Source: Chloroflexota bacterium (GTDB taxonomy: Bacteria; Chloroflexota; Limnocylindria; Limnocylindrales; CSP1-4). Taken from it: DNA of 64,000 nucleotides. Of the stretch, positions 16,105 through 43,444 are shown in pieces. Location of the stretch: the NCBI GenBank assembly GCA_013698095.1, contig JACCVQ010000133.1:2596-66595 (forward strand), given 5' to 3'. A program made the position numbers and the translations under genes. The notes under the pieces were generated by a model that saw only the letters and a list, made by a program, of their open reading frames with translations, was not told where the DNA came from and made no database searches. Position 1 is the stretch's first letter; the number at the start of each line of letters is the position of its first letter.

Positions 16105-16171
16105 CCGGGCCCGTACTCGGCGCACCGACATTCCTACTTGACCGGGTGCTGCGCGTCGCCACGATGAGGAC

Positions 16172-18499
16172 GTGATCGAACCGGGGGCCGTCACCGACGG
16201 CGCAGATCCGCCCGTCCACGCCCACGCCCACGCCGACACGCGTCGGCGATGGCTGGCCCCGTCGTCGGCCGTCCTCGCCTTCGGCGGGGTCATCGGCTGG
16301 TCGGCGTTCCTGCTGTTCTCGGTCGAGCCGCTGATCGGCCGGCTCGTCCTGCCGGTCTTCGGTGGAACGCCGGCCGTCTGGGCGACGACGCTGTTCTTCT
16401 TCCAGGCTGTCCTGCTGCTCGGCTACCTGTACGGCCATCTCTCGGTGACACGACTCGGGATCCGGCGCGGCGCCGTGCTCCACATCGCGCTCGTCCTGGC
16501 TGCCGGCGCCGCACTCGCCCTCTCGCCGGCGCGCCCAGCGGACCTCCGCGACCCGGCCATTCCGGACGTGCTCAACCTCGTCGGCATGCTGGCCCTGACG
16601 ATCGGGCTGGCGGCGTTCGTCCTGACGACCACGACGCCACTCGTGTCAGCGTGGTACGCGGCCAGCCGGACCGCCACCAGCGACGGCGGCGACGCCTACT
16701 GGCTCTACGCCCTGAGCAACGCGGGGTCCCTGCTCGCCTTGCTCGCCTATCCGTTTCTCATCGAGCCACGGCTGGGGCTGTCGGCCCAGCGTGGGGTGTG
16801 GGCCGTCGGCTTTGTCGTGTTTGCCTTGGCGATCGCCGGGTGCGCCGCATGGGCGAGCGGACGCGCCGGACGGACGTCACCCGCGGCCGGACCGGACGAG
16901 CTCGAGACAACCGGCGCATCCGAGCCGATCGCCGGGCGGCGGCGGGCGACCTGGCTGCTCCTGGCAGCGGTGCCGTCCGGGCTGCTGTCGGCGGTCACCA
17001 CGTTCATCGCCACCGATCTCGTCTCGGCTCCGTTGTTGTGGCTTGTGCCGCTGGCGATCTACCTGCTTACGTTCATCGTCGCGTTCTCGGATCGCGGTCG
17101 TCGCATGGTGCCTGCGGCCGCACTCGTGGCCCCCGCCGCGGTCACCCTGATGTGGGTGCCGTTCGGGTCGGCCGGTGGCTGGCCGATCCTGCCGCTCGTC
17201 GTCCTGATGTACGGCGGCCTAGGTGTCGTCGCCACCGCGATGCACGGCCGGCTCGCCATGGACCGACCGGATCCGGCCCATCTGACCGAGTTCTACCTCG
17301 TGATCTCGATCGGCGGGGCGCTCGCCAGCGCGTTCGTCGCGCTCTTCGCGCCAATCCTGTTTCCGGGCGTTTGGGAGTTCCCGATCCTGCTCGTCCTGGC
17401 CCTCGTCGCCCTCGCCGCGACGGAGCCACGGCGTCGCGGCAGTGGCGTCGCGCGGACCAACCGACCACCGATCAACCTGGCGCCGTTCGTCCGCGGCGCC
17501 CGGAGCCGAGTGCTGCCCTACCTCGCGGTCGCCGCGATCCTTGTCGTGTTCCTGGTGCGCGACACGTCGCTCGGTGCGGAGGCCGGTATCCGCTGGCTGC
17601 TCGTCGGCGGACTGATCCTGCTCGTCGGCGCGCGGCCCGCATTTCTGGCCACATCCACGGCGCTCGTTCTGGCGCTCGCCGTCCTCGTCCTCCAACCGGC
17701 CGCGATCTTCCGCGACCGGAGCTTCTTCGGCGTGACCGAGGTCCTCCGACCGGACGGCGCACCACAGACCACGTTGATGAACGGGACCACGGTCCACGGA
17801 GTCCAGTGGACGGATTCGGCGAAGGCGCAGATGCCGACCGCGTACTACGCGCCGGCCGGCCCGTTCGGCGACGTCTTCGCGGCATTGGAGAGCGATGACC
17901 AACCAAAGGACATCGCGATCGTCGGCCTCGGCGCCGGCGCATTGACGTCGTACCTCCGGCCGAACTGGACGATGACCTACTTCGAGATCGATCCGCTCGT
18001 GGCAGAGGTCGCGTCGGATCCGCGCTTCTTCACGTTCCTGTCGAGCGCGAATCCGCGGCCATCGATCGTCTTGGGCGACGCCCGCCTGTCCCTCTCGGAC
18101 GTTCCGGCTCAACGATTTGACGCGTTGTTCGTCGACGCATTCTCGTCCGATGCCGTGCCCACGCACCTGCTGACCAGCGAGGCCTATGCGCTCTACGCCC
18201 GGCTCGTCAAGCCTGGCGGCCTGGTCGTGACCCACATCCCGAATCGCTATTACGATCTGGCCCCGGCCGTTGCGGGCGCCCAGGCGGCAAATGGCCTGAC
18301 GGCCCTGATCCGAACGTTCCAGCCGACCGAGACCGAGGCGCGTGAGGGCGCGGCGCCCACGATCCTCGCGGTCGCATCGTCGATCGGATCGTCGCTCGCG
18401 GACTTGCGCGACGGCGGCTGGCAGCCGCTCGAACCGACCGTCCCTCCGATGACTGACGACTTCATGGACGCGCTGCGGTTTCTTCGTCCGCTCTGGTAG
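16172..18499 (+). CDS. fused polytopic membrane domain / spermidine-synthase-like protein (second tandem copy)
   Basis: GTG start at 16172. N-terminus reads LLFSVEPLIGRLVLPVFGGTPAVWATTLFFFQAVLLLGYLYGH. C-terminus reads DIAIVGLGAGALTSYL...FEIDPLVAEVA...IVLGDARLSL...FDALFVDAFSSDAVPTHLLT.EAYALYARLVKPGGLVV. Confidence 0.72.
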   Translation: MIEPGAVTDGADPPVHAHAHADTRRRWLAPSSAVLAFGGVIGWSAFLLFSVEPLIGRLVLPVFGGTPAVWATTLFFFQAVLLLGYLYGHLSVTRLGIRRGAVLHIALVLAAGAALALSPARPADLRDPAIPDVLNLVGMLALTIGLAAFVLTTTTPLVSAWYAASRTATSDGGDAYWLYALSNAGSLLALLAYPFLIEPRLGLSAQRGVWAVGFVVFALAIAGCAAWASGRAGRTSPAAGPDELETTGASEPIAGRRRATWLLLAAVPSGLLSAVTTFIATDLVSAPLLWLVPLAIYLLTFIVAFSDRGRRMVPAAALVAPAAVTLMWVPFGSAGGWPILPLVVLMYGGLGVVATAMHGRLAMDRPDPAHLTEFYLVISIGGALASAFVALFAPILFPGVWEFPILLVLALVALAATEPRRRGSGVARTNRPPINLAPFVRGARSRVLPYLAVAAILVVFLVRDTSLGAEAGIRWLLVGGLILLVGARPAFLATSTALVLALAVLVLQPAAIFRDRSFFGVTEVLRPDGAPQTTLMNGTTVHGVQWTDSAKAQMPTAYYAPAGPFGDVFAALESDDQPKDIAIVGLGAGALTSYLRPNWTMTYFEIDPLVAEVASDPRFFTFLSSANPRPSIVLGDARLSLSDVPAQRFDALFVDAFSSDAVPTHLLTSEAYALYARLVKPGGLVVTHIPNRYYDLAPAVAGAQAANGLTALIRTFQPTETEAREGAAPTILAVASSIGSSLADLRDGGWQPLEPTVPPMTDDFMDALRFLRPLW

Positions 18500-18580
18500 C
18501 TGGTGGCTCCGCACGGTCGCTGTTTCCGCGCTCCGTTGCGGCCGCAATCGAATCCGGGGACCCGGTGCTATCCTCGGCCC

Positions 18581-19816
18581 GTGACCACCCACGCTCCCAG
18601 CGCGGAGCCCGCCTGTCCGGGCGCGACCACCCCCGACAGGCCAGCCGACCAACCGGACGCAGCCCTGGATCCGGCCGCCCTGCGCGTTGAGCGACGAGCG
18701 TTCGACGACGTCCCGCGGGCAACCTGGGATCGCCTGGCGGCAGCGAATTCGTGGGCGACGCCATTCTCGTCGTGGGCCTACCAGCGGGCGTGGTGGGATG
18801 CCTACGGCGCGAGCGCTCACGATCAGACGCTCATCGTCGTCCGCGCCGGCGGCGCGCCAACAGAGCCCGTCGCGATCGTGCCCCTCATGCACCGCCACGA
18901 GGTGGAGCCCGGCGATGAGGCAACGGCCTCGAAGATCCGTCACGGCGACCCGGGGAACCTGACTCCCGTCCCGCCGACCGCCAAGGCGATCTTCTTCGGC
19001 GCCTCGTACCACGCCGACTACGCGACGATCCTTGCGGCGCCGGCCGACATGCCCGCGGTCGCCACGGCTCTCGTCGACCACCTTGCCTCGCCCGACGCGG
19101 TCGACCCCGGCCATCCGGAGCCGTGGGACGCGGTCGACCTGCGCCGCCTCCGCTGCGGCGACCCAACCGCCGACGCCCTGGCCAGAGCCTTCGGAGTGCG
19201 CGAGATGGGCGAGCGTTGGACGCTCAATCTGGAGCGCGAAGACGTCTGCCCGGTCGTCACGTTCCCCGAGAACGTCGATTTCGAGGGCTATCTCGCGACC
19301 CTCGACAAGAAATCGCGCCACGAGATCCGGCGCAAGATCCGGCGAGCCGAGGCCTCGGGAGAAGTCCTCCTGGCGCCATCAGCAGACCCCCTCGCCGACC
19401 TGCCCGACTTCATCGACCTCCATCAGCGCCGCTGGGGTGCGGACGGGCTGTTCCCGCCGACGCCGGGCGGTGACGCGTCGCGGGTGTTCATGCGCCGGCT
19501 GTTCGAGGAGAACGGCCCGGACGGCCCCGTCCGGCTGTCGTTCCTGACCGTCGGCGAGCGGCGCGTTGCCGCCGGGATCCATGTCGCGACGGCCGACACC
19601 TGGATGTTCTACAACGCCGGGATCGACCCCGACGCCCGCGAGCTGTCGCCGGGCGTCCTGCTCGCCGCGCGCTACGTGCAGGCGGCGCTCGAGGCCGGCA
19701 TGGGGCGGTTCGATTTCCTGCGCGGTAACGAGCCGTACAAGTACGAGTGGGGCTCCGAGGACGAGCCGATCCAGCGGCTGCTGGTGCGCCGGGACGCCGA
19801 CGGGAGCTCCGCCTGA
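18581..19816 (+). CDS. GNAT-fold acyltransferase, CelD / BioF2-like (FemAB-related) family
   Basis: ORF 18503..19816, with GTG 18581 the likely start. Contains WDRLAAANSWATPFSSWAYQRAWWDAYG, FEGYLATLDKKSRHEIRRKIRRAE, and FLTVGERRVAAGIHVATADTWMFYNAGIDPD...SPGVLLAARYVQAALEAGMGRFDFLRGNEPYKYEWG. Confidence 0.7.
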   Translation: MTTHAPSAEPACPGATTPDRPADQPDAALDPAALRVERRAFDDVPRATWDRLAAANSWATPFSSWAYQRAWWDAYGASAHDQTLIVVRAGGAPTEPVAIVPLMHRHEVEPGDEATASKIRHGDPGNLTPVPPTAKAIFFGASYHADYATILAAPADMPAVATALVDHLASPDAVDPGHPEPWDAVDLRRLRCGDPTADALARAFGVREMGERWTLNLEREDVCPVVTFPENVDFEGYLATLDKKSRHEIRRKIRRAEASGEVLLAPSADPLADLPDFIDLHQRRWGADGLFPPTPGGDASRVFMRRLFEENGPDGPVRLSFLTVGERRVAAGIHVATADTWMFYNAGIDPDARELSPGVLLAARYVQAALEAGMGRFDFLRGNEPYKYEWGSEDEPIQRLLVRRDADGSSA

Positions 19817-21018
19817 TGGGAGCGCCCCCGACCTGGGACCCATGTCTCGTCCCGCTCGAGCACGTTGACCTGCCCGGCCCGCAGCGCGTCCGGGTCGTCG
19901 AGATCCTCGCCACCGGCACCAGCGGCGGCGCACAGGAGCACCTCTTTTCGCTGCTGTCGCGGCTCGACCGCACGTTCTACGAGGCGTCGGTCGTCGCCTT
20001 GTCGGGGGGCAGCGCGGTCCGCAAGCTCCAGCGCCACGGCTTCGATGTCACCGTCATCGACGAAGCCGACGATGCGGCCGCCGTCCGCGCCCTCACCGCC
20101 CACCTGGCGATGGTCCGACCGGACGTCGTCCACACCCACATGTACCGGGCCGACATCGTCGGGACGAAGGCCGTCATCGCCCTCCGCGACAGCGGCCATC
20201 GGGCACCGTACGTCGTCTCGACGGTCCACTCGTCGCGGATCCGCTCGCACGAGGACCGCGACCTCCTCCGCCAGCTCACCCCGTCAATGGACCAGCTGAT
20301 CGCGGTCTCGAAGTCGATCGAGCGCAAGATCGCCGACGAGCACCGGACCGGCGCGCCGGTCCGCCTGATCTACAACGGGGTGGACCTCCAGCGCTACGAC
20401 CACCAGGAGCCGTGCGCCCCGTTCGGCGACCAGTACGGGATCGAGACCGGATCGAAGATCGTCGGGGTCGTCGCCCGGCTCGAGTCGGAGAAGGGTCACC
20501 AGACCCTGATCGAGTCCTGGCCGGCGGTCCTCCGCGAGGTCCCGGACGCGTACCTGTTGATCGTCGGCGAGGGCTCGCGACGCGACGCGCTCGAACAGCT
20601 GGCGTCGGCCCGCAGGGTCGGCCATCGAGTCGTCTTCACCGGGCGTCGCGACGACATCCCGGCCGTCACCGCCGCGCTTGACGTCGCCGTCCTACCCTCG
20701 TGGCGCGAGGCCCAGGGCCTGTCGATCCTCGAGGCGATGGCGTTGTCGCGGCCGGTCGTCGCATCCGATGTCGGCGGGATCCCGGAGATGGTCGAAGACG
20801 GCGTCACGGGCCTGCTCGTGGAGCACGACAACCCGGCTGCCCTGGCCGCTGCGATCGTCCGTCTGCTGAAGGATCGCCCGTTCGCCGCGAGGATCGCCAA
20901 GGCCGGCCACGACCTCGTCCACGACCGCTTCTGCATCGAGTTGATGGTCAAGGCGATCGAGCAGATCTACGACGACGGCGCTCGCGCCGTTCGCCTGGCC
21001 GAGGCCGCGGCGAGCTAG
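19816..21018 (+). CDS. GT4 (GT-B fold) glycosyltransferase
   Basis: ORF 19747..21018 was trimmed to ATG 19816 (TGATG overlap with the upstream stop). Contains GGAQEHLFSLLSRLD, VVARLESEKGHQ, and WREAQGLSILEAMALSRPVVASDVGGIPEMVEDGVTGLLV (the E-x7-E region). Confidence 0.85.
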   Translation: MGAPPTWDPCLVPLEHVDLPGPQRVRVVEILATGTSGGAQEHLFSLLSRLDRTFYEASVVALSGGSAVRKLQRHGFDVTVIDEADDAAAVRALTAHLAMVRPDVVHTHMYRADIVGTKAVIALRDSGHRAPYVVSTVHSSRIRSHEDRDLLRQLTPSMDQLIAVSKSIERKIADEHRTGAPVRLIYNGVDLQRYDHQEPCAPFGDQYGIETGSKIVGVVARLESEKGHQTLIESWPAVLREVPDAYLLIVGEGSRRDALEQLASARRVGHRVVFTGRRDDIPAVTAALDVAVLPSWREAQGLSILEAMALSRPVVASDVGGIPEMVEDGVTGLLVEHDNPAALAAAIVRLLKDRPFAARIAKAGHDLVHDRFCIELMVKAIEQIYDDGARAVRLAEAAAS

Positions 21019-21086
21019 CTCTCGCATCGCCGGTAGGACCATCGTCGTGGTGCGGAGGCGCACCGGGGCGGGCTAGGATCGCCCTT

Positions 21087-21941
21087 GTGAGAGACCGCCT
21101 GCTGCGCGACGGGTTCGTCATCCTTGCCGTCGCCTTCGTCGCGTTGCGTCTCCTCGCGATCAAGCCGTGGGCCGACAGCGTGGATGCGTACGCCTACTGG
21201 ACGACACGCGACGGTGTCTTCTACCAATACGCGACGACGGGGCGGATCGGGGCGTACCTCTATTCGCCGGCGTTCGCCCAGGCCCTTGCGCCATTCGTCT
21301 GGTTGCCGCTGGCGGTCTTCACAGCGCTGTGGACCGCCCTGAACAGCGCTGCGCTGTGGTTCATCCTCCGACGCTGGGCCCTGCCGAGCATTCTCTTCCT
21401 GCCGATCGCCTTCGAGATCGTGTCCGGCAACGTCCACCTCCTGTACGCCGCCGCAATCGTCGTCGGGTTCCGCTGGCCGGCGGCGTGGGCGCTGATGCTC
21501 CTGACGAAGGTCACGCCGGGCGTCGGCATCCTGTGGTTCCTGGTCCGGCGCGAGTGGCGCTCGCTCGCCATCGCGCTCGGCGTGACCGCGGCAATCGCCG
21601 GAGTCTCGTACGCCCTCGACGCGACTCAGTGGGCACGCTGGATCGAGATCCTGCGGGCCGATGCAGGGGGCGCCGGCGAGGGCACTTTCACGACCGTCGG
21701 CGGTTACCTCCCGATCGCGCTCGCGCCGCGCCTGGCGGTGGCCGTGGTCGTGGTCGTCCTCGCCGCGCTGACGGATCGTCGCTGGCTTGTCCCGGTCGCG
21801 GTCGTCCTGGCAATGCCCGTCGTCTGGGTGAACAGCCTCGCCGTCCTCGCCGCCTGCGTTCCACTGTGGCGCGAGCGCCGCGTCCCGGTCGCGCGACCGG
21901 AGACGTTTGGCGGCACGCCGCCGCTCGGGGCACGCCCATGA
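21087..21941 (+). CDS. DUF2029 / GT87-like membrane protein (short, 284 aa)
   Basis: ORF 20700..21941 was trimmed to GTG 21087 (VRDRLLRDGFVILAVAF...). Contains SVDAYAYWTT...YLYSPAFAQALAPF, SGNVHLLYAAAIVVG and LLTKVTPGVGILWFLVRREW. Confidence 0.6.
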   Translation: MRDRLLRDGFVILAVAFVALRLLAIKPWADSVDAYAYWTTRDGVFYQYATTGRIGAYLYSPAFAQALAPFVWLPLAVFTALWTALNSAALWFILRRWALPSILFLPIAFEIVSGNVHLLYAAAIVVGFRWPAAWALMLLTKVTPGVGILWFLVRREWRSLAIALGVTAAIAGVSYALDATQWARWIEILRADAGGAGEGTFTTVGGYLPIALAPRLAVAVVVVVLAALTDRRWLVPVAVVLAMPVVWVNSLAVLAACVPLWRERRVPVARPETFGGTPPLGARP

Positions 21942-23080
21942 GCCGGTCCACGAGCTCGCCCCCGCGGCCCGCGTTCGGCCGACGTCCGGCCGACATCGTG
22001 TCGATCGTCGCCATCGGAGCCGTCATCGTCGCCTACATCGGGTACGGCCTCCTGACCGCCCAGAGCACGCTCGGTTGCGACTTCCTCGCCTACTTCAACG
22101 CGTCCGTCAACTGGGCCCACCACAGGCCGATCTACGACCTCTCCGTCGCCTCGACCGGGACGTGCGGGATCTACCAGTACCCGCCGCCCTTCGTGATGCT
22201 CGCGATCCCGTTTAGCGTCTTCGGGTTCGACATGGGCAACGGCCTGTGGATCGCGTTCCTGCTCGCGTGCTGGGGGATCGGGACGGCGATCCTGCCGGTC
22301 CGGCCGACGACGCGCATCATCATCCTGCTGGTCGGCGCGGTCGGCTGGCCGCTGCTCTACGGCGTCCGGCTCGGCACGGTCGCACCGATCCTCTACGTCC
22401 TGTTCGCGCTGGCCTGGCGGAACCTCGAGCGGCCCGTCTGGCTCGGCGCGAGCGTGGCGATCGGAGCCATGGTCAAGCTCCAACCGGGGCTGATCGCCGT
22501 CTGGCTCCTTGTCCGCCGCGACTGGCGTGCGCTGGCGGCCGCGGCCGTCGTGGGTGCGGTCATCGCCGGGATCGCGGCGGTGGTCGGCCTGTTCGATTGG
22601 CTTGGCCTCCTCACCCTCCTCAGATCGCTCTCGAATGCGGTCGACATCCCGGTCAACATGGCGATCGGGGCGACGCTGCGCAGCCTGGGCATGGATCTCG
22701 AGCTCGCCCGGACCATCCAGACCGTCAACACGATCGTGATCCTGGCGATCGTCGTCGTGACCGGGATCCGGCTACCGCGAACGGCGGGCTTCCTCGTGGC
22801 GGTCGTTGCGAGCCAGCTGATCTCGCCGATCGTGTGGGCCCACTACGCCGTGATATTGCTCCTGCCCGTGGCGTGGCTCCTCGATCGGGGGCAGTGGTGG
22901 GCCATTCTCATCCCGCTCGTCCATCTCTGGGTGCTCCTGCCCTTTGCTCCCAACTGGACCTATGCGGTCGCCTTCCACGCCACGTTGATCGGGTTGATTG
23001 TCGTGGGCTGGCGCGACGGCAGAGAGGCGGAGGAACCGACTTCGGCCGCAGTCCTGGCGGCAAACGAGCCGGCCGCCTGA
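21938..23080 (+). CDS. DUF2029 / GT87-like membrane glycosyltransferase
   Basis: ORF 21167..23080 was trimmed to ATG 21938 (ATGA overlap). Contains GCDFLAYFNASVNWAHHRPIYD...YQYPPPFVMLAIPF, VRLGTVAPILYVLFALA and GAMVKLQPGLIAVWLLVRRDW. Confidence 0.75.
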   Translation: MSRSTSSPPRPAFGRRPADIVSIVAIGAVIVAYIGYGLLTAQSTLGCDFLAYFNASVNWAHHRPIYDLSVASTGTCGIYQYPPPFVMLAIPFSVFGFDMGNGLWIAFLLACWGIGTAILPVRPTTRIIILLVGAVGWPLLYGVRLGTVAPILYVLFALAWRNLERPVWLGASVAIGAMVKLQPGLIAVWLLVRRDWRALAAAAVVGAVIAGIAAVVGLFDWLGLLTLLRSLSNAVDIPVNMAIGATLRSLGMDLELARTIQTVNTIVILAIVVVTGIRLPRTAGFLVAVVASQLISPIVWAHYAVILLLPVAWLLDRGQWWAILIPLVHLWVLLPFAPNWTYAVAFHATLIGLIVVGWRDGREAEEPTSAAVLAANEPAA

Positions 23081-24384
23081 TGCAGTACGGGGTGATCGGG
23101 GCAGGGGTCCTCGGGATGACCGCGGCGCTGCGCCTCCTGGAGCGCGGTCACGAGGTGTCGATCCTCGAGGCCGGCGATGGCGTCGGCGGCCTTGCCGGGA
23201 GCTTCGAGGTCGAGCCCGGCATCTGGCTGGAGAAGTTCTACCACCACATCTTCCGATCGGACCGCCGGATCACCGCCCTGATCGAGGAGCTCGGGCTCGG
23301 GCCGAGCCTGCGCTGGCACGAGCCGGAGACCGCGATGCAGTCAGGCGGCCGAGTCGAGGCATTCGACACGCCGGGCGCCGTCCTGCGCTTCAGCGGCCTG
23401 CCCCTGATCGACCGGGTCCGACTCGGCGCCGGTGTCGCTCTCCTCAAGGCGATGCCGCGATCCGGGCCGATCCAGGATGTCAGCGCCCGGCGCTGGCTCA
23501 CCCGGGTGATGGGCGGCAACGCCTGGCGAGTCGTCTGGGAGCCACTGCTCCGGGGCAAATTCGGGGATGCGGCCGACGACGTCTCGATGGCCTGGCTGTG
23601 GGCCCGGATCCACGATCGAACGCGTCAGCTCGGGTACATCGACGGCGGCTTCCACCAGCTCTACACCCGGATCGCCTCCCGGATCGACGAGCGTGGCGGG
23701 CGGCTCGTCACGGGCTTCCGGGCCGCGGCGATCGAGCCGCAGGGAGCGGAGATTTCGGTCAGGAGCGCCGACGCTCGGGTCGAGACATTCGATCGCCTGA
23801 TCTCGACCCTGCCCGCTCACCTGACGCTCGGGATCACCAAGGACCCGGCGATCGACCCCACGGCCGGGCCGCGCCCGCCGGATGCGCTCGGCGCGCACTG
23901 CCTGATCCTCAGTCTCGATCGACCGCTGACGGGGCGCTACTGGATCGGCGTTGCAGATCGCGGAAGCCCGTTCCTTGCCGTCGTCGAGCACACCGCGATG
24001 CTGGAGCCGGCCGCGTACGGCGGCCGGCACCTTGTCTATCTCGGCAACTACGTGCCCCACGACGACCGGCTGTTCGAGGAGACCCCGGACGAAACCCTCG
24101 CCCGCTACGCACCGGCGATCCGCGGCCTGAACCCGGCCTTCGATCCGTCCTGGGTGGGCAAGCGCTGGGCGTTCGGTGCCCGGTTCGCCCAACCGATCGT
24201 GACCCCGGGCTTTCGGATGCGCATCCCGCCGTTCGAGACCCCGGTCCCGAACCTGTTCGTCGCGAGCATGTTCCAGGTGTTTCCCCACGATCGCGGCCAG
24301 AACTACTCGATCGAGCTGGCCGAGCGGGTGGTCGCCCGCCTCGAGGGCCCGGCGCGCACGACGCCCGCCGGCGCGGGCCGATGA
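23080..24384 (+). CDS. FAD/NAD(P)-binding oxidoreductase, amine-oxidase / protoporphyrinogen-oxidase-like fold
   Basis: ORF 22246..24384 was trimmed to ATG 23080 (TGATG overlap). The N-terminal dinucleotide motif is MQYGVIGAGVLGMTAALRLLERGHEVSILEAGDGVGGLAG. The rest is soluble. Confidence 0.75.
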   Translation: MQYGVIGAGVLGMTAALRLLERGHEVSILEAGDGVGGLAGSFEVEPGIWLEKFYHHIFRSDRRITALIEELGLGPSLRWHEPETAMQSGGRVEAFDTPGAVLRFSGLPLIDRVRLGAGVALLKAMPRSGPIQDVSARRWLTRVMGGNAWRVVWEPLLRGKFGDAADDVSMAWLWARIHDRTRQLGYIDGGFHQLYTRIASRIDERGGRLVTGFRAAAIEPQGAEISVRSADARVETFDRLISTLPAHLTLGITKDPAIDPTAGPRPPDALGAHCLILSLDRPLTGRYWIGVADRGSPFLAVVEHTAMLEPAAYGGRHLVYLGNYVPHDDRLFEETPDETLARYAPAIRGLNPAFDPSWVGKRWAFGARFAQPIVTPGFRMRIPPFETPVPNLFVASMFQVFPHDRGQNYSIELAERVVARLEGPARTTPAGAGR

Positions 24385-25808
24385 GCCTCGCTCGCCTGTG
24401 GGCATTCCTTGCGATCGGGTTGCCGGTACTCGCGGCGCTGATCGCGAACCTGTCGGCGGTCGATCTCGCGTACCACCTGCGGGCCGGCGGGATCGTCCTC
24501 GACACCGGCCGGATCCCGACGACCGATACGTTCACGTTCACCGCCGCCGGCGAGCCGTGGCTCAACCAGCAATGGGGCGCCCAGGTGATCCTCGCGACGG
24601 TCTATCGCGTCGCCGGCTGGACGGGGCTGGCGCTCCTGCGCGCCGTGCTCGTCGGTCTCACGTTCGGACTGTTGTTCGAGGCGTGTCGGCGGCGCGGCTT
24701 CGACCTTCGACGTGCCGCCTGGCTGACGATCGCGGCGTTCGTCGTGACCGCGGTTGCCCTGGCTCTTCGGCCGCAGCTGTTCGGGATGGCGCTGCTGGCG
24801 CTGACGCTCCTGATCGTCGTGGAGCGGCGCGCCCATCCGCGTCTGTTGTGGGCGGTGCCGGTCATCGTCTTCGCCTGGGCCAGCATCCACGGCAGCTTCA
24901 TTCTCGGCCCGGTCGTGCTCGGGCTCGCCTGGCTCGAGGACGTCCACGACCGCGTGCCCGGCCGGCACCGGCTCCTCGGCGTCGCAGTCGTCGCGGCGGC
25001 GGCCGCGCTCGTCAACCCGTTCGGCATTGGCGTGTGGGCCTATGCCGTGGGGCTGTCGACGAACAGCTTCGTGACGAGCCGGATCAGCGAGTGGCAGCCG
25101 ACGACGCTCCGGACGATCCCCGGGATCCTGTTCTTCGGATCGGTCGCGGTGGCCGTCCTCCTCCTCGTTCGGCGTGGCCGGCCGCCCACTTGGCCGGCGC
25201 TCGCCTGGCTGGCGGTCTTCGCCGCGATCGGCACGTATGCGATCCGCGGTGTCGCCTGGTGGCCGCTGGGCTCCGCGGTCGCGATCGCCGGGGTGCTCGC
25301 GGCGCGCGAGACGTCCACGGAGGCCGCGCCTGCCCCGCGGCGTGCCGAGCGCTCGAGCCGCCTCAACGTCGTCTTCGTGGGGTTGATCGTCCTCGTCTGC
25401 GTCGCCCTCGTGCCAGTCTGGCGCCCGATCGACAGCCGCCTCGGCGTCCCGGTGGGGACCGTCGGCGACGCCCCTGGCGGGATCACGCATGCGCTCGGGA
25501 AGGCGGTCCGGCCGGGCGACCGGATCCTCAACCCGCAACCGTGGGGATCGTGGTTCGAGCTGGCCCTGCCGCAGGCCACGGTCGCCCTCGATTCCCGGAT
25601 CGAGGTGTTCCCGGCCGCGGTCTGGGACGACTACGACGCGGTCCACCGCGGGACCGACGGATGGCAGGCCATCCTCGCCCGCTGGGCGCCGACATTCGTC
25701 GTTGCGACCGACGACGAGGACGCGTTCGTCGCGCGCCTGACACTGACGGGCTGGACGGTGCTCTACGCCGACGATGACGGCACGATTCTGCGGCGCCCGG
25801 CCTCGTGA
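24381..25808 (+). CDS. polytopic membrane protein with C-terminal soluble domain, probable GT-C-type glycosyltransferase or glycan polymerase (family unassigned)
   Basis: ORF 22998..25808 was trimmed to ATG 24381 (ATGA overlap). Contains MSLARLWAFLAIGLPVLAAL..., DTFTFTAAGEPWLNQQWGAQ, and many TM helices. The C-terminal part of about 140 aa is hydrophilic. Confidence 0.55.
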   Translation: MSLARLWAFLAIGLPVLAALIANLSAVDLAYHLRAGGIVLDTGRIPTTDTFTFTAAGEPWLNQQWGAQVILATVYRVAGWTGLALLRAVLVGLTFGLLFEACRRRGFDLRRAAWLTIAAFVVTAVALALRPQLFGMALLALTLLIVVERRAHPRLLWAVPVIVFAWASIHGSFILGPVVLGLAWLEDVHDRVPGRHRLLGVAVVAAAAALVNPFGIGVWAYAVGLSTNSFVTSRISEWQPTTLRTIPGILFFGSVAVAVLLLVRRGRPPTWPALAWLAVFAAIGTYAIRGVAWWPLGSAVAIAGVLAARETSTEAAPAPRRAERSSRLNVVFVGLIVLVCVALVPVWRPIDSRLGVPVGTVGDAPGGITHALGKAVRPGDRILNPQPWGSWFELALPQATVALDSRIEVFPAAVWDDYDAVHRGTDGWQAILARWAPTFVVATDDEDAFVARLTLTGWTVLYADDDGTILRRPAS

Positions 25809-25880
25809 GACGCGGTCCGACGTTGCCGGAGGGAGTTCGGCCCATGGCTCCATCCCGCGCCGGACTGGTACGGTCTGCGC

Positions 25881-27077
25881 ATGCCACCTGAACTCGACGT
25901 CGTGGTGCTTGGCGGCGGAGGTCATGTCGGGCTCCCCCTGAGCCTTGCCTTCGCCCGGGCCGGCCTGCGGGTCGGCATTTACGACATCAGCCAGCCCGGC
26001 CTCGACCGGATCGCCGCCGGCAAGATGCCGTTCAAGGAGAACGGGGCCGACGAACTCCTCGCCGAGCTCCTGCCGACCGGCCGTCTCGAGATGAGCACGG
26101 ATGGTGCGATCCTCGCTCGGACCATGCAGGTCGTCGTCGTGATCGGCACCCCGGTCGACGAGTTCCTCGGGCCATCGATGACGGTCTTCGAACGAGCCGT
26201 TGCTCAGATCAGCCCATACCTCCGCGATGGCGCGCTGATCGTGTTGCGGAGCACCGTGTATCCCGGCACGACCGCCTATGTGGCCCAGCACCTTGCCAGG
26301 CGCGGCGCCAATGTCGACGTCGCCTTCTGCCCGGAACGGATCGCCGAGGGCCACGCCCTCGAGGAGCTCCACACCCTGCCCCAGATCGTCGGCGCCGACA
26401 CCGAGCCGGCCGGCGATCGAGCCGAGGCACTCTTCGGCCGCCTTGCCAGGAAGACGATCCGGACGACGTCCAAGGAGGCGGAGCTCGCGAAGCTCTTCAC
26501 GAATACCTGGCGCTACATGAAGTTCGCCGTCGCGAACCAGTTCTTCATGATCGCGGACCAGGCAGGTATCGACTACTCGAACGTCCTCGACGCGATCCGG
26601 ACGGACTATCCGCGCGCGGCGGACCTCCCGTCGCCGGGCTTCGCCGCGGGCCCTTGCCTGTTCAAGGACACGATGCAGCTCGCCGCCTTCACGACCGACC
26701 ACTTCCCGCTCGGACAGGCCGCGATGCAGGTCAACGAGGGTCTGCCGGCGTATATCGTCTCGGCGCTCGAGCGCCGCTACGAGGGGCTCCATGGCAAGAC
26801 GGTCGGGATCCTCGGCATGGCGTTCAAGGCCGAGTCCGATGACGCCCGGGCGTCGCTCAGCTACAAGCTCCGGAAGCTCCTCGCCTGGGCTGGCGCCACT
26901 GTCGTCTGCACGGACCCGTTCGTCCAGGACGACCGGCTCACGACTCTCGAGTGCGTCCTGGAGGAGAGCGACGTGCTCGTGCTCGGCGTGCCGCACAAGG
27001 CGTACCGCAGCCTCGACGTCGGGGGCAAGGACGTCGTCGACGTCTGGGGCGCCCTCGGCGAGGGCATCCGGCTGTGA
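25881..27077 (+). CDS. nucleotide-sugar dehydrogenase (UDP-glucose/GDP-mannose dehydrogenase family)
   Basis: Contains VVVLGGGGHVGLPLSLAFA, VAFCPERIAEG, KEAELAKLFTNTWRYMKFAVANQF, GFAAGPCLFKD and ILGMAFKAESDDARAS. Confidence 0.85.
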   Translation: MPPELDVVVLGGGGHVGLPLSLAFARAGLRVGIYDISQPGLDRIAAGKMPFKENGADELLAELLPTGRLEMSTDGAILARTMQVVVVIGTPVDEFLGPSMTVFERAVAQISPYLRDGALIVLRSTVYPGTTAYVAQHLARRGANVDVAFCPERIAEGHALEELHTLPQIVGADTEPAGDRAEALFGRLARKTIRTTSKEAELAKLFTNTWRYMKFAVANQFFMIADQAGIDYSNVLDAIRTDYPRAADLPSPGFAAGPCLFKDTMQLAAFTTDHFPLGQAAMQVNEGLPAYIVSALERRYEGLHGKTVGILGMAFKAESDDARASLSYKLRKLLAWAGATVVCTDPFVQDDRLTTLECVLEESDVLVLGVPHKAYRSLDVGGKDVVDVWGALGEGIRL

Positions 27078-28096
27078 AGATCCTGATCACCGGCGCCGCC
27101 GGGTTCATCAACGGCTATCTCGTCCCGGAGCTGCTCGAGGCCGGCCACGAGGTCATCGGGCTCGACGACTTCAGCAAATACGGCCGCCTGACGAAGTCGT
27201 ACGACCATCACCCGCGTTACCGCTTCTTCGAGGGCGACGCCAAGGACGTCGGGCTGATGACCGAGCTGGCGGCAGACGTCGACCAGGTCGTGGCCGCCGC
27301 TGCGATGATTGGTGGGATCAGCTACTTCCACGAGTTCGCGTACGACCTGCTGGCCGAGAACGAGCGGATCCTCGCCTCGACGTTCGATGCGGCGATCGCC
27401 GCCCACAAGACCGGCCGGCTGAAGCGGATCATCGTCGTGAGCTCGTCGATGGTCTACGAGTCGGCGACGGTGTTCCCGACCCCGGAAGGCGCCGAGAAGA
27501 CCTCGCCGCCGCCGATCTCGACCTACGGCTTCCAGAAGCTCGCGTCCGAGTATTTCGCGGCCGGTGCCAGGGAGCAGTTCCAGCTGCCGTACACGATCGT
27601 CCGACCGTTCAACTGCGTCGGGATCGGCGAACGCCGGGCCACGCGCGACACCGACATCATGTCCGGCAACGTGAAGCTGGCTCTCTCGCACGTCGTACCG
27701 GATCTCGTGCTCAAGGTGCTCAAGGGCCAGGACCCGCTCCACGTCCTGGGCGACGGGTCGCAGGTCCGCCACTACACGTACGGCGGCGACCTCGCTCATG
27801 GCATCCGCCTTGCGATGGAGTCGCCGGCCGCCGAAAACAACGACTTCAACCTGTCCACGGCCCGCTCGACGACCGTCCTCGAGCTGGCCGAATGCATCTG
27901 GTCGAAGATCCACACCGACGGCCGCCCGTTCAACTACACCTCGGACACGCCGTTCAAGCACGATGTCCAGCTCCGCGTCCCGGACGTCCGGAAGGCGAAG
28001 GAAGTCCTCGGCTATGAGGCGACGACGTCGCTCGAGACGATGCTCGACGAGGTGATCCCGTGGATCCGCGACGAGGTCGCGGCGGGGCGGCTGTGA
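27074..28096 (+). CDS. NAD-dependent epimerase/dehydratase (extended SDR)
   Basis: ORF 26951..28096 was trimmed to GTG 27074 (GTGA overlap). Contains VKILITGAAGFINGYLVPELLEAGHEVIGLD, SSSMVY and YGFQKLASE (Y-x3-K). Confidence 0.85.
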   Translation: MKILITGAAGFINGYLVPELLEAGHEVIGLDDFSKYGRLTKSYDHHPRYRFFEGDAKDVGLMTELAADVDQVVAAAAMIGGISYFHEFAYDLLAENERILASTFDAAIAAHKTGRLKRIIVVSSSMVYESATVFPTPEGAEKTSPPPISTYGFQKLASEYFAAGAREQFQLPYTIVRPFNCVGIGERRATRDTDIMSGNVKLALSHVVPDLVLKVLKGQDPLHVLGDGSQVRHYTYGGDLAHGIRLAMESPAAENNDFNLSTARSTTVLELAECIWSKIHTDGRPFNYTSDTPFKHDVQLRVPDVRKAKEVLGYEATTSLETMLDEVIPWIRDEVAAGRL

Positions 28097-28842
28097 GCGC
28101 GAGCGGCATCCCTCCCGAGCTCTCGATCGTCCTGCCCGTGTACAACGAGGGCGAGGGGGTCGAGCCGGTCCTCCGGGCACTGTCGGCCGGGATCAAGACG
28201 CCCCACGAGCTGGTCGTCGTGTACGACTTCGACGAGGACACCACCGTGCCCGTCGTGGCCCGGCTCGCACACGAGATCCCGAACCTGCGCAGCCTCCGCA
28301 ACGATCTCGGTCGGGGCGTGCTCAATGCGATGAAAGCGGGCATCGCCGGCACGACTGGACCGTTTGTCCTGATCTCGATGGCCGACGGCTCCGACGAGCC
28401 CCACGTCGTCGACCCGATGGTCGCGCTCGCCCGCGACGGTGCCGACATCGTGTCGGCCAGTCGGTACATCAAGGGTGGCCATCAGGTCGGCGGGCCACGC
28501 CTGAAGCGACTGATGAGCCGAGCGGCCGGGCTCAGCCTGCATCACCTCGCCGGCGTCCCGACCCACGACCCGACAAACAACTTCAAGCTCTACCAACGGA
28601 CGTTTCTGGCGACGACTCCGATCGAGAGCAGTGCCGGCTTCGAGCTGGCCCTGGAGCTGACGGTGAAGGCCACCCTCGCCGGCAGCCGCATCGCCGAGAT
28701 CCCCACCACGTGGCGCGACCGGACGGCCGGTCAGAGCAACTTCAAGCTCCGCAAGTGGCTACCGCACTATCTCCACTGGTACCGCGTCGCATTTGCCGGC
28801 CGCATTCGTCGGCTCGCCGGCCGCCGCCCTCGAGCCCGCTGA
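28093..28842 (+). CDS. GT2 polyprenyl-phosphate glycosyltransferase (DPM1 / ArnC-like)
   Basis: ORF 28060..28842 was trimmed to GTG 28093 (GTGA overlap). Contains LSIVLPVYNEGEGV, VVVYDFDEDTT, ISMADGSDEP, ASRY..GG, DPTNNFKLY and ELTVKATLAGSRIAEIPTTWRDR. Confidence 0.85.
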   Translation: MSASGIPPELSIVLPVYNEGEGVEPVLRALSAGIKTPHELVVVYDFDEDTTVPVVARLAHEIPNLRSLRNDLGRGVLNAMKAGIAGTTGPFVLISMADGSDEPHVVDPMVALARDGADIVSASRYIKGGHQVGGPRLKRLMSRAAGLSLHHLAGVPTHDPTNNFKLYQRTFLATTPIESSAGFELALELTVKATLAGSRIAEIPTTWRDRTAGQSNFKLRKWLPHYLHWYRVAFAGRIRRLAGRRPRAR

Positions 28843-30066
28843 CTCGACTGCCTCGGTGCGGAGAATCGCGATCGTCGCCGCGAGGATCGCGAGCATCGCG
28901 AGGGACCCGGCGACTCCGAGCGGACCGCCGACCGGGAGGGTCGCGCCGACCTCCGGAGTCGGCGGCACGGCGGCCAGCAGGTTCAGCGTGAACACGACCC
29001 CGAATACGAGGGCCAGCCAGGCCGCCCGACGATCCGGGAAGGCGAGAGCGAGGAACGCCAGCGCCCCGAAGGCGTAGCGCTCGTGCATCGTCGTCAGCAG
29101 GCAGAACGCGACGAGGACGGACGCAGCGAGGCCATACGCCAGCCCCCGCGCGGAGCGCGCTCGATACGCCAGGCCGAAGACAGCCAGCTCGCCGAGCAGG
29201 GCCAGGCCGTATCCAACGTGGCGCAGGGTCAGCGAGCCGACGACCGCGCCCTGGTCGGATACGAACTGACCGCCCGCGAAAGCCTCCTGGACCAGCCACC
29301 ACGCGTTCCACGCCCGGAGCGAGAGGATCGCGAAGATGTCGCCCTGGTACTCGGCGAGGTTCCGGGCGTAGCCCTGGACCCCGCCGGCCGCGAGGAACGG
29401 CAGCCACAGCAGGACGATGACTGCGGCCCCGACCAGCCCGGCCCGGACGGCGCCAAGCCAGCCGTCGCGGGCCAGGAACCACGCCCCGAATGGCACGAGG
29501 AATGGCAGGGCCTGCGGCTTGGTCATCAGGGCGACCGCCAGCGCCGCAGCGGCCCAGAGCGAATGGCCGCGGACCGCCAGGACGTAGGCGACGGCGCCGC
29601 CGAGCACGTAGATCGACTCGTACTGGCCCCACCACGCGCTGACGTCGATGACGGCCGGGTGAAGCAGGATCGCGGCACCGCCGAGGATCGCCCAGCGCCG
29701 GGTAGCCCGGAGGTGCCAGATGACGACGAGGCCAAGGGCGATGTCGGCCAGGCTGGCCGGCGCCTTCATAATCGCCCGGATCCCGGGCTCGGCCGATGTC
29801 GTCACCGTTCGGAACGCCGGCTCGATGGCCGCGAGGACGCCCCAGATCCAGGCCATGACGGGCGGGAACGACAGGTTCTGGTCGTACGCGTTGCCGAAGG
29901 AGCCAGTCGCGAGGCCGTGAACCCACAGGACGAACTGGTCGAGGTCGCCGGTCAGGCCCGGCGTGGGCCACAGGGCGATCCGAATGGCGATGGCGAGCGC
30001 GACGATCGCGGCGACTGCCCCGATGAACGGGATCCGGGGCGTCGCGTCACGGGTGCGTTCACTCAA
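28759..30066 (-). CDS. GT-C fold membrane glycosyltransferase, Gpi18/PIG-V-related or ALG-like (COG5542-type)
   Basis: ORF 28759..30465 was trimmed to TTG 30066; the start is uncertain. Contains IRIALWPTPGLTGDLDQFVLWVHGL, NLSFPPVMAWIW, SAWWGQYESIY, ALMTKPQALPFL, and TTMHERYAFGALAFLAL near the C-terminus. The 3' end overlaps the convergent GT2 gene by 84 nt. Confidence 0.6.
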   Translation of the reverse strand: MSERTRDATPRIPFIGAVAAIVALAIAIRIALWPTPGLTGDLDQFVLWVHGLATGSFGNAYDQNLSFPPVMAWIWGVLAAIEPAFRTVTTSAEPGIRAIMKAPASLADIALGLVVIWHLRATRRWAILGGAAILLHPAVIDVSAWWGQYESIYVLGGAVAYVLAVRGHSLWAAAALAVALMTKPQALPFLVPFGAWFLARDGWLGAVRAGLVGAAVIVLLWLPFLAAGGVQGYARNLAEYQGDIFAILSLRAWNAWWLVQEAFAGGQFVSDQGAVVGSLTLRHVGYGLALLGELAVFGLAYRARSARGLAYGLAASVLVAFCLLTTMHERYAFGALAFLALAFPDRRAAWLALVFGVVFTLNLLAAVPPTPEVGATLPVGGPLGVAGSLAMLAILAATIAILRTEAVESAGSRAAAGEPTNAAGKCDAVPVEIVR

Positions 30067-30195
30067 GGCGGACCCATCGTAGCGTCGGGGAGGGGGTCGC
30101 TCACCCGCCCGCCTGCGATGTTCGAAAGGCGCGTGCGAGTCGGCGGCCACATCGTGCGACGGCCAGCCCGGCCCCGACCGTGCGACCATGCGCCC

Positions 30196-30450
30196 ATGGA
30201 GAAGCATAACCGCGAACAACGACGGCAGGCGAAGTTCGGCGGCGGCCGAGCCAAGGACCAGGGCGGCTGGCCGACCGGCGAGCCGAATCCGGTCTTCGGC
30301 GGCGGCGAGGCGCCCGAGGAGGCGATCGCCGGCCGACCGGACCAGGATCAGACCAAGCTGACCGGACCGGGAACGGGTGGCGCCACGGAGCAGGACGAGC
30401 GGATGCCGCACCACGAGGGCGTCCACGGGAGCAACAGCGCCAAAGGCTGA
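30196..30450 (+). CDS. hypothetical small hydrophilic Gly-rich protein (84 aa)
   Basis: It lies inside the antisense-looking ORF 29083..30450, in a stretch of about 480 bp that no gene explains. From ATG 30196 it reads MEKHNREQRRQAKFGGGRAKDQGGWPTGEPNPVFGGGEAPEE... Third-codon positions are almost all G/C while second positions are mixed, which is the pattern of genuine genes in this window. No clear SD sequence, and no family recognised. Confidence 0.35.
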   Translation: MEKHNREQRRQAKFGGGRAKDQGGWPTGEPNPVFGGGEAPEEAIAGRPDQDQTKLTGPGTGGATEQDERMPHHEGVHGSNSAKG

Positions 30451-30543
30451 CCCGACGGGTTGCACCCGGCCAGGACTATGCGGCTATTCGAAACGGCGGC
30501 GCGGTCACGTTGGGCCGCCCCGCACGCCCCACCCCGGCGACCG

Positions 30544-31641
30544 CTACGCCTGCGCCGTCGACCAGTAGCGCTCGGCGGCTCCGCCTGACCCGTCGAGCAG
30601 GGCGACCTTCCGGGCATACGCCCGGACCTGTCGAGCCATCTCCTGGGTCCCCTCGAACAGCCGATCGATCTGGCTCTCGTACAGGTTGATGCCGCTGATC
30701 TTGCGCTCGAGCTGATCGCCGATGTCGGCGAATTCGGGACTCAGGTGGACGCCGTCAGGCAGGTCGGCGAAGGCGGTTCGCGGCAAGTCCTCGAGACGCG
30801 AGAAGTCGTTCCACCAGGCGTAGGGGAAGTCCTCGTAGAACGTGACGATTCCGGCGTAATCCGGTCCGGGCATGACCCAGCGCCGGCCCTCGCCCAGGAG
30901 CTTCACTCCCACGTCGCGACAGAGTTGATGGTCGACGTGGTTGCCGACGCCGAGCGGCAGGTACAGTTTCTGCGGCTCGAGCCGGACGATCTCGCGGAGC
31001 AGGATCTCGTACGGCGCGGCGTCGTCGGCGCGCGGCGCATTCAGCAGCTCCTCGTCGTTCTCGTACCCGCGGAACACGGCGTCGGGCAGGTCGAGGAACA
31101 CGATCGAGGCTTCGGCAAAGGCCGCGAACATCTCATCTTCGAGACGCCGTTTCGCCATCAGCTCGCCCGCGGCGGCGGCATCGACCAGCTCGTCGGTCGC
31201 GACCGCGCCCTGCGTGCTGAGCGTGTCCATCACCGGCTGACCGGCCAGCGACTCGGACCGGATGCTCGCCCGGCGGTACCACGACGAGCGCTGCCAGAAG
31301 CGCTTGGCGGCGGCGTCGGCGTCGACCTGGGTGGCCTCGAGCCGGTCGTCGGTGGCCGCCCAAGCCGGAAGCACCTCGGGATCGCCGTAGACCGGGAAGT
31401 CGGCCGCGATGTGGGAGCGGTTGAACGCTTCCGACACCGGCCACATCGTCTTCGTCCCGAAGCCGAGCGCCTCGCGCTGGTAGGTCGTGAGGCCGTCGCC
31501 GTTCTCGCGCTCGGCCCGGCCCGTACCCGAGAACACCGTCAGGATCGTCACGTTCTGGCCGAGCTCGCGGAGGCTCGCGATCAGCCCGCCGCAGGAGAGC
31601 GCAACGTCGTCGGGATGGGGGGCGACGAAGACGTGGGTCAT
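30544..31641 (-). CDS. PIG-L / LmbE family N-acetylglucosaminyl deacetylase with a large internal insertion
   Basis: ORF 30544..31746 was trimmed to ATG 31641 (MTHVFVAPHPDDVALSCGG). The second metal motif GVGNHVDHQ appears only at about residue 245 of 365. Confidence 0.8.
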   Translation of the reverse strand: MTHVFVAPHPDDVALSCGGLIASLRELGQNVTILTVFSGTGRAERENGDGLTTYQREALGFGTKTMWPVSEAFNRSHIAADFPVYGDPEVLPAWAATDDRLEATQVDADAAAKRFWQRSSWYRRASIRSESLAGQPVMDTLSTQGAVATDELVDAAAAGELMAKRRLEDEMFAAFAEASIVFLDLPDAVFRGYENDEELLNAPRADDAAPYEILLREIVRLEPQKLYLPLGVGNHVDHQLCRDVGVKLLGEGRRWVMPGPDYAGIVTFYEDFPYAWWNDFSRLEDLPRTAFADLPDGVHLSPEFADIGDQLERKISGINLYESQIDRLFEGTQEMARQVRAYARKVALLDGSGGAAERYWSTAQA

Positions 31642-33831: not shown

Positions 33832-33946
33832 TGGCGACGATCGTCCTGCTCGTTGCCGGACGGTTGTGGAGATCCACCGGCTCACCGACCCCCGGTACAC
33901 TGGCCGCCATGGTTCAGGCCTCGTCCCGTCACGAGTCGGGCTCCTC

Positions 33947-38449: not shown

Positions 38450-38457
38450 GCGGGGCG

Positions 38458-41154: not shown

Positions 41155-41156
41155 GC

Positions 41157-43426: not shown

Positions 43427-43444
43427 CCTTGGCAACGAACGAGC

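Follow-up and report, generated by a model that had tools for sequence, protein, structure and literature searches.

We analyzed a 64,000-nucleotide stretch of DNA from a Chloroflexota bacterium of the class Limnocylindria (assembly GCA_013698095.1, contig JACCVQ010000133.1, positions 2,596 to 66,595; hereafter the window). It contains a locus in which a family 4 glycosyltransferase (GT4), a PIG-L/LmbE-family de-N-acetylase, a DPM1-like family 2 glycosyltransferase (GT2) and several membrane-embedded glycosyltransferases of the GT-C class lie close together. An initial annotation had noted that the same enzyme classes build the core of eukaryotic glycosylphosphatidylinositol (GPI) anchors, and had raised the possibility of a bacterial analog. 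Because the window is ~70% G+C, genes were called by third-position GC content and inspection of start codons, and were then scanned against Pfam and NCBIfam. Close homologs of the deacetylase and of the adjacent GT-C protein come from soil and freshwater metagenome-assembled genomes (MAGs) labeled Candidatus Limnocylindrales, Limnocylindrus or Chloroflexota, and an identical deacetylase is also encoded on a MAG contig of GCA_020063865.1. As the host belongs to the Chloroflexota and is not an actinobacterium, comparisons with the phosphatidylinositol mannosides of mycobacteria are analogies only.

A plus-strand operon spans 13792-28842, with many neighboring genes joined by start/stop overlaps (TGATG, ATGA or GTGA). 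The genes for the deacetylase and one GT-C protein lie on the minus strand and converge on this operon. The genes of the locus are as follows.

13792-18499, plus strand: two membrane proteins, each an MFS/spermidine-synthase-like fusion, opening the operon (PF07690, PF01564)
18503-19816, plus strand: FemAB/CelD-like GNAT (Acetyltransf_6; PF13480, E 1.5e-28)
19816-21018, plus strand: GT4, retaining (PF00534/PF13692, E about 1e-42)
21087-21941, plus strand: GT87, a PimE-family GT-C (PF09594, E 5e-12)
21938-23080, plus strand: GT87, a PimE-family GT-C (PF09594, E 4e-18), overlapping the preceding GT87 gene through ATGA
23080-24384, plus strand: FAD-dependent oxidoreductase of the amine-oxidase family (PF01593, E 2.5e-34; NCBIfam PRK07233, 421 bits)
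24381-25808, plus strand: unclassified polytopic membrane protein with ~11 hydrophobic segments and a soluble C-terminal domain
25881-27077, plus strand: nucleotide-sugar 6-dehydrogenase (TIGR03026, 281 bits)
27074-28096, plus strand: epimerase/dehydratase of the short-chain dehydrogenase/reductase type (PF01370); GTGA overlaps run across the dehydrogenase, epimerase and GT2 genes
28093-28842, plus strand: GT2, soluble, DPM1-like (PF00535, E 1e-17)
28759-30066, minus strand: GT-C with an ALG6/PIG-M/PimE fold, downstream of PIG-L (AlphaFold model and Foldseek)
30544-31641, minus strand: PIG-L/LmbE-family de-N-acetylase, 365 amino acids (aa) (PF02585, 55.5 bits against a cut-off of 28.2)

The start/stop overlaps on the plus strand, together with an arrangement that recurs in dozens of related loci, indicate that this grouping is not due to chance. 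Pfam, NCBIfam, Protein Data Bank (PDB) and fold evidence confirmed the GT4, two GT87 proteins, the DPM1-like GT2, the GT-C at 28759-30066 and the PIG-L deacetylase. The gene list in the initial annotation was thus mostly right, except that it omitted the GNAT, the coupled partner of the GT4 in the core. Its assignment of 21087-25808 to GT-C enzymes applies to the two GT87 genes (21087-23080) and does not extend to the oxidoreductase; nor can it be supported for the membrane protein, which shows no profile similarity to the GT-C at 28759-30066. The GT4, GNAT, PIG-L and GT2 proteins have no transmembrane (TM) segment and are predicted to be cytoplasmic. A scan of 28.5-32 kb for promoters and terminators found none.

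The deacetylase, GT4 and GNAT

The metal-binding and catalytic motifs of the deacetylase, P-H9-P-D11-D12 and H235-V-D237-H238, do not vary among 44 relatives. Between them, at residues 43-160, lies an acidic insert of ~100 aa that is modeled poorly (pLDDT ~32-65; model as a whole, 79.5). Every long-form Limnocylindria ortholog carries the insert, and it is missing from relatives of 260-290 aa and from the 41%-identity ortholog at a related locus, L082. Among solved structures, the closest relatives are Dbv21 and Orf2*, the deacetylases of A40926 and teicoplanin tailoring (phmmer E 1e-6; Foldseek E 1e-13 to 1e-11, target TM score 0.72-0.80), ahead of BshB-type enzymes (fold E 1e-7 to 1e-5) and MshB (2e-4). 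Matches to the BshB1/2 models of NCBIfam are confined to the N-terminal motif of the deacetylase (BshB1, 30 bits against a cut-off of 182.5), and the same scan returned no MshB or Mca match. The initial annotation had proposed that the GPI analogy would be refuted if the enzyme clustered firmly with thiol-pathway or antibiotic-tailoring deacetylases. It leans toward the antibiotic-tailoring Dbv21/Orf2* over MshB, although identities of 16%-20% make these its nearest neighbors and not a firm cluster. This placement derives from profile scores and fold ranking, not from phylogeny, within a comparison set that did not include eukaryotic PIG-L.

Shorter relatives of the deacetylase (~270 aa; 260-290) occur in 80 metagenome loci (L083-L162), where a gene for an HhH-GPD DNA glycosylase consistently precedes them and a fused HPPK/FolE2 gene and RsfS frequently come after, with a Ser/Thr kinase gene also nearby. 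This housekeeping setting, unlike that of the window, is uninformative on function. PplD was dropped as a precedent within the PIG-L family: the paper does not place it in that family, and PplD is extracellular and TM-anchored.

The PDB entries closest to the GT4 are those of BshA (2jjm, 3mbo and 5d00; E 6.5e-29 to 2e-25), followed by MshA (3e-20), PimB' (9e-19) and PimA (1e-14). Scores against the corresponding NCBIfam equivalog models fall far under their cut-offs (BshA, 135 bits vs 273.7; MshA, 96.6 vs 462.5), as does that against GlcN_PG_synth, the model for N-acetylglucosamine (GlcNAc)-phosphatidylglycerol synthase (58 bits vs 480). In Pfam only generic GT4 domains match, and PF08288 (PIGA) is not among them. 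We infer that the sugar donor is UDP-GlcNAc. The GNAT gene is translationally coupled to the GT4 gene through a TGATG overlap and travels with it in related loci. The GNAT has no match in NCBIfam or the PDB; by analogy, we propose it as a candidate N-(amino)acyltransferase acting on the amine that the deacetylase would free.

Gene neighborhoods across Limnocylindria

Using a profile of the deacetylase, we fetched 80 loci from species-representative genomes (individual loci are given L numbers), nearly all from Limnocylindria and with PIG-L identities of 41%-90%, and mapped the window proteins onto related loci by tblastn. Counts for the region downstream of PIG-L refer to the 47 loci in which that flank extends for at least 8 kb. 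The following additional features of the window enter the comparison.

1040-4200, minus strand: pair of PMT_2-like GT-C genes (PF13231)
31807-49500, plus strand: variable sugar-gene island of ~17 kb (Pfam content)
49547-50257, minus strand: PCMT (Pfam), ancestral upstream neighbor of PIG-L
50258-51433, minus strand: gene without an assigned family, ancestral upstream neighbor of PIG-L
51434-53779, minus strand: DUF5317-MFS (Pfam), ancestral upstream neighbor of PIG-L
53873-55303, minus strand: HD-domain protein (Pfam), ancestral upstream neighbor of PIG-L

The block comprising the GT-C, GT2, epimerase and dehydrogenase genes occurs in 25 of the 47 loci, all with PIG-L identity of at least 65%, and is absent from every locus below that value. 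GT4 and GNAT persist where the block is missing: in 17 of 22 block-free loci they lie within 10 kb of PIG-L, in convergent orientation. In the deepest branches (L048, L054, L060 and L082) GT4 abuts PIG-L at 1.0-1.2 kb, and GT4-GNAT adjacency is kept down to 41% PIG-L identity (L082). Thirteen cassette-bearing loci show no GT4, and in these the fetched flank stops while still inside the operon. Minimal deep-branch loci also keep, 2.4-8.6 kb from PIG-L, two PMT_2-like GT-C genes orthologous to the pair at 1040-4200; tblastn with the PMT_2-like genes of locus L061 gave 41%-42% identity to the window and 30%-59% to deep-branch loci. Finally, in ~23 of the 47 loci the gene after PIG-L, in the same orientation, is a GT-C gene of the window type or GT87, and in L002 it starts 5 bp past the PIG-L stop codon. 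From this pattern we conclude that the ancestral set consists of PIG-L, GT4, GNAT and GT-C genes. Judged by its distribution, the DPM1-like GT2/GT-C cassette is, like the other modules, a later, swappable insertion.

Upstream of PIG-L the neighborhood is of a different kind. Of the 54 loci with a PCMT gene, most have it ~0.9 kb from PIG-L and in the same orientation; in the window the distance is 18.8 kb, and we therefore conclude that the sugar-gene island was inserted between PCMT and PIG-L. In 36 of 41 loci, DUF5317-MFS and HD-domain genes are likewise found upstream, with the orientation of PIG-L. One reading of this is that HD, MFS, PCMT and PIG-L form a housekeeping block that happens to adjoin an insertion hot spot for glycan genes, and that the substrate of PIG-L is unrelated to the GT4, GT2 or GT-C enzymes. 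The constancy of PCMT, MFS and HD as neighbors fits this explanation, as do the free variation of modules on both sides, the location of GT4-GNAT on the opposite strand and the housekeeping contexts of the short-form relatives. We nevertheless consider it rather unlikely that the genes form no functional unit, given that in many loci the gene immediately downstream of PIG-L, in the same orientation, encodes a GT-C, that GT4-GNAT adjacency survives to the deepest PIG-L divergence and that the enzyme classes are chemically complementary.

The same data bear on whether the pathway product is soluble. A bacillithiol- or mycothiol-like glucosamine (GlcN) conjugate, with the FemAB-like enzyme replacing BshC or MshC and the position beside glycan genes being incidental, would account for the proximity of the GT4 to BshA and MshA and for the BshB N-terminal motif, the only NCBIfam match of the deacetylase. 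The trio of GT4, GNAT and PIG-L moreover persists in a streamlined 2.4-Mb genome, beside an MFS transporter, and the housekeeping surroundings of the short-form deacetylases point the same way. No equivalog score comes near its cut-off, however, and in the window the GNAT-GT4 pair is translationally coupled into an operon of membrane-protein and GT87 genes. As roughly half of the loci have co-oriented GT-C genes directly after PIG-L, and the trio of the minimal loci is accompanied by PMT_2-like GT-C genes, we regard a soluble conjugate as very unlikely.

The GT2/GT-C cassette and a candidate envelope glycoconjugate pathway

The best solved match of the GT2 is the Dol-P-Man synthase of Pyrococcus (5mlz, E 2.5e-19), over residues 9-241, the catalytic domain; matches to ArnC (2e-7) and GtrB are both at ~1e-7. 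All of its NCBIfam matches are polyprenol-phosphate sugar synthases (PgfS, Dol-P-hexose transferase, AglJ, ArnC and PpgS), each below the equivalog cut-off, and by sequence the protein is a DPM1-like synthase of this kind.

The GT-C at 28759-30066 has no Pfam match even at E<=10, including PF05007 (PIG-M) and PF04188 (PIG-V/Gpi18), and a PDB sequence search returned nothing usable. Its AlphaFold model (pLDDT 84, pTM 0.88) retrieves ALG6 (6snh), Gpi14/GPI mannosyltransferase I/PIG-M (9wno, E 6.7e-6) and PimE (9dm5) in Foldseek, all at E about 6e-6. These matches place it in the class of GT-C enzymes dependent on polyprenol-phosphate hexose and do not mark it specifically as a GPI enzyme. The first-loop Asp (D41 in the 435-aa form) is invariant; the start codon is ambiguous (30066, 30189 or 30414). 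Homologs have marginal GT87 or ALG6 matches, and some are named 'Gpi18-like mannosyltransferase' by JGI. The suggestion that the protein is Gpi18-related thus retains the GT-C fold and these homolog names, and loses family membership: PF04188 does not match, and ALG6 and PimE fit equally well. The convergent GT2 and GT-C open reading frames (ORFs) overlap by 84 bp at their 3' ends (28759-28842), and homologs do not conserve the part of the GT-C C terminus that lies in this overlap.

The dehydrogenase, epimerase, GT2 and GT-C genes would be self-sufficient as a route for decoration through a lipid carrier, perhaps with a uronic acid, and would not require PIG-L. The cassette recalls the rhizobial Rgt/LpsL system. 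Our initial hypothesis had been that GT2, PIG-L and GT-C form an Arn/Lgm-like unit; it was demoted upon finding that PIG-L persists without the cassette and that the GT2 resembles Dol-P-Man synthase. In such an Arn/Lgm/PpgS-type scheme, the GT2 would make a polyprenol-phosphate N-acetylhexosamine (HexNAc), or a uronic form of it, PIG-L would deacetylate this on the cytoplasmic face and the GT-C would transfer the sugar to an envelope acceptor. PIG-L and GT-C, on one strand, converge with dehydrogenase-epimerase-GT2 repeatedly, in many of the 25 cassette loci; the GT2 has weak matches to ArnC and PpgS; and several related loci carry an MprF/UPF0104-type flippase-like gene in the cassette region. 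Yet the GT2 is much nearer Dol-P-Man synthase than ArnC, and a uronic-acid decoration cassette could operate without PIG-L. Because PIG-L is kept in all deep-branch loci devoid of the GT2/GT-C cassette, an Arn-type role cannot be ancestral, and we judge this scheme quite unlikely.

The flippase-like gene (LPG_synthase_TM) lies at most ~5 kb from PIG-L, near the GT2 and epimerase genes, in L002/L006 (12549-13595), L033, L037, L050, L079, L059 and L060. No homolog of it is encoded in the window.

The explanation we favor, and to which we assign about an even chance of being correct on the basis of sequence comparisons, is that this is a Limnocylindria-specific envelope glycoconjugate locus, with a conserved core that adds, deacetylates and re-acylates glucosamine, combined with GT-C extension and swappable cassettes. 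The BshA/MshA-like GT4 would transfer a HexNAc (probably GlcNAc, donated by UDP-GlcNAc) to an acceptor. The N-acetyl group of this presumed substrate would then be removed by PIG-L, a soluble zinc deacetylase whose PIG-L/LmbE family and intact active site are clear, and the FemAB/CelD-like GNAT would re-acylate or aminoacylate the exposed amine. The product, presumably lipid-linked, would be exported, and GT-C enzymes (PMT_2-like, GT87 and ALG6/PimE-fold) may extend or decorate it outside with polyprenol-phosphate sugars. In this genome, the dehydrogenase, epimerase, DPM1-like GT2 and GT-C cassette could supply one such decoration, and the island at 31.8-49.5 kb could provide unusual nucleotide sugars.

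Evidence for the proposed core includes the relationships of its enzymes: among solved structures the deacetylase is closest to Orf2*/Dbv21, and the GT4 to BshA and MshA, the GT4 partners of LmbE-family deacetylases. The synteny of GT4, GNAT and PIG-L is kept without the cassette, and the PMT_2-like pair is retained in the deep branches. Several observations weigh against it. In NCBIfam the GT4 is matched best by stp2, the model of a generic exopolysaccharide GT4, with a score far under the cut-off. GT4-GNAT and PIG-L are convergent and not co-transcribed, and synteny within one class can be inherited in the absence of functional coupling. The tightest neighbor of PIG-L is PCMT, a housekeeping-type gene, and the shorter relatives of the deacetylase also sit among housekeeping genes. 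In addition, the re-acylation step relies on analogy, as the GNAT lacks a characterized close relative.

The initial annotation had also suggested that a GlcN unit is made inside the cell and extended outside. With GT4 and PIG-L paired across the class, both predicted to be cytoplasmic, and GT-C and DPM1-like genes present in the locus, this inside-then-outside logic is reasonable; the part that did not hold is the fixed involvement of the GT2/GT-C genes beside PIG-L, which are optional. A GPI-type core would be a narrower claim, in which GT4 makes GlcNAc-phosphatidylinositol, PIG-L converts it to GlcN-phosphatidylinositol and GT-C mannosyltransferases, supplied by the DPM1-like GT2, elongate it on the outer side. 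The enzyme classes and predicted topology fit, the GT4/PIG-L pair is conserved and the GT-C model matches Gpi14/PIG-M. Moreover, some Chloroflexota, Chloroflexus and Thermomicrobium among them, have phosphatidylinositol-type lipids. However, the GT4 is without a PIG-A domain and nearer BshA/MshA than PimB'/PimA, the deacetylase is nearest Orf2*/Dbv21 and the GT-C, with neither PF05007 nor PF04188, fits ALG6 and PimE as well as PIG-M. The CDP-alcohol phosphatidyltransferase motif, the signature of phosphatidylinositol synthase, is absent from the neighborhoods covered (the window and 82 related loci, 1.28 Mb). Neither an ethanolamine-phosphate transferase nor a GPI transamidase was found among the scanned ORFs of the window, with ORFs at ~38.5-39.1, 40.3-41.6, 43.4-44.3 and 45.3-46.2 kb left unscanned. 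Coupled with the optional nature of the cassette, these findings make a GPI-type core highly improbable. Homology to the GPI pathway was not borne out: there is no PIG-A domain and no membership in the PIG-M or PIG-V families, and the likeness is confined to enzyme classes and membrane topology and implies no inositol lipid. A bacterial GPI analog, as a specific claim, is not established. As for mycobacterial-type lipids, no PatA-type acyltransferase was seen; GT87 genes are present and the GT4 matches PimB'/PimA weakly. A phosphatidylinositol version of the locus is improbable and unsupported.

A broader variant would be a surface glycan anchored on a membrane lipid whose N-(amino)acylated glucosamine is produced by the GT4/PIG-L/FemAB-like trio, extended outside by GT-C enzymes and thus an independently evolved counterpart of GPI or lipoarabinomannan. 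We view this as rather improbable; only in its narrowest version may the anchoring lipid be phosphatidylinositol. Limnocylindria are not known to possess lipopolysaccharide.

In addition to these genes, the window contains others that vary among loci. The FAD oxidoreductase gene is translationally coupled between the GT87 and membrane-protein genes, and a homolog is present in none of 41 related loci, making it specific to this locus variant; the enzyme may act on a lipid-linked sugar, oxidizing it. The membrane protein at 24381-25808 has no Pfam or NCBIfam match, is found in 24 of 41 loci and often adjoins GT4 in relatives; hhalign comparisons of it, and of the GT87 protein GT87b, with a GT-C profile were not significant. 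The island at 31807-49500 encodes a CDP-hexose-type pathway, a thiamine diphosphate-dependent enzyme, an FkbM methyltransferase, a SIS domain, a GtrA-like protein and membrane proteins, and looks like a strain-specific island for glycan diversification. A further GT87 gene at 5340-6650 has a borderline PIG-U match (24.7 bits vs a cut-off of 24.5), which most likely reflects the shared GT-C fold, PIG-U itself being a GT-C-fold protein, and not a GPI function. On the 2.4-Mb Limnocylindria chromosome of L061 (OY969885.1), a small soluble spermidine-synthase-like gene (11031-11858) overlaps the end of PIG-L; it was seen in two loci only, and its domain is the same one that is fused to MFS at 13792-18499 in the window.

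Comparison with known systems

Limnocylindria are abundant in soils and lakes, and none has been cultured. A class-wide GlcN core tied to GT-C enzymes and rapidly swapped cassettes would offer a testable entry to the surface glycoconjugate of this lineage and could reveal how it is diversified. The locus also indicates that PIG-L-family deacetylases occur in envelope-type loci, beyond the thiol, antibiotic and GPI contexts. In the literature we found no description of a system combining GT4, LmbE, FemAB-like and GT-C proteins, nor of Limnocylindria envelope or inositol biology.

The route that involves Orf2* and Dbv21 proceeds from GlcNAc transfer through deacetylation to N-acylation. The deacetylase of the window shares with these two enzymes the C-terminal motifs (Y)ED(F/L)PYA and Y..SQ. 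Its setting differs, being an envelope-glycan locus and not a glycopeptide cluster, its partner is a GT4 and not a GT1 and it carries the ~100-aa insert as an extra. Bacillithiol and mycothiol synthesis (BshA/BshB/BshC; MshA/MshB/MshC/MshD) likewise pairs a retaining GT4 with an LmbE-family deacetylase and then acylates the freed amine; the window, however, has no BshC- or MshC-type ligase, with the FemAB/CelD-like GNAT in that place, and its genes lie amid those for GT-C and other membrane proteins.

The initial annotation had expected a bacterial GPI-type core to be novel if confirmed, a claim to be moderated since bacterial routes to GlcN lipids that combine a glycosyltransferase, a deacetylase and a flippase have been described (PMC12713373, PMC10128005). 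In GpgSDF of P. aeruginosa, the cytoplasmic GT4 GpgS glycosylates phosphatidylglycerol (PMC12713373), and in HexSDF of C. difficile, HexS, annotated as a transferase of the monogalactosyldiacylglycerol-synthase type, acts on hexosyl-diradylglycerol (PMC10128005); in both, a deacetylase then exposes the amine. As in the pathway proposed here, HexNAc is attached by a glycosyltransferase, in these systems to a membrane lipid, before a deacetylase frees the amine. These systems differ from the window in the family of their deacetylases (COG3233 and an annotated polysaccharide deacetylase, respectively; PMC12713373, PMC10128005), in using an MprF-type flippase and in lacking a re-acylation step or GT-C extension.

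The cassette invites comparison with three-component extracytoplasmic glycosylation, in which a GT2 making a polyprenol-phosphate sugar works with a flippase and a GT-C (ArnC/ArnT, GtrA/B/V, PpgS/Rv3779 and Ppm1/PimE). It resembles such systems in having dehydrogenase-epimerase-GT2 convergent with GT-C, and in the flippase-like gene found in the cassettes of some relatives; unlike them, it is optional in the class and stands beside a PIG-L-family enzyme, no known component of these systems. GPI core synthesis (PIG-A, PIG-L, DPM1 and PIG-M/V/B) differs from the window in its PIG-A domain and PIG-M/PIG-V families, neither of which is matched here, as well as in the phosphatidylinositol synthase signature, missing locally, and in the optional GT2/GT-C genes. 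What it has in common with the window is a GT4, a DPM1-like GT2, a deacetylase of family PF02585 whose zinc site is intact, the GT-C fold and an inside-then-outside topology.

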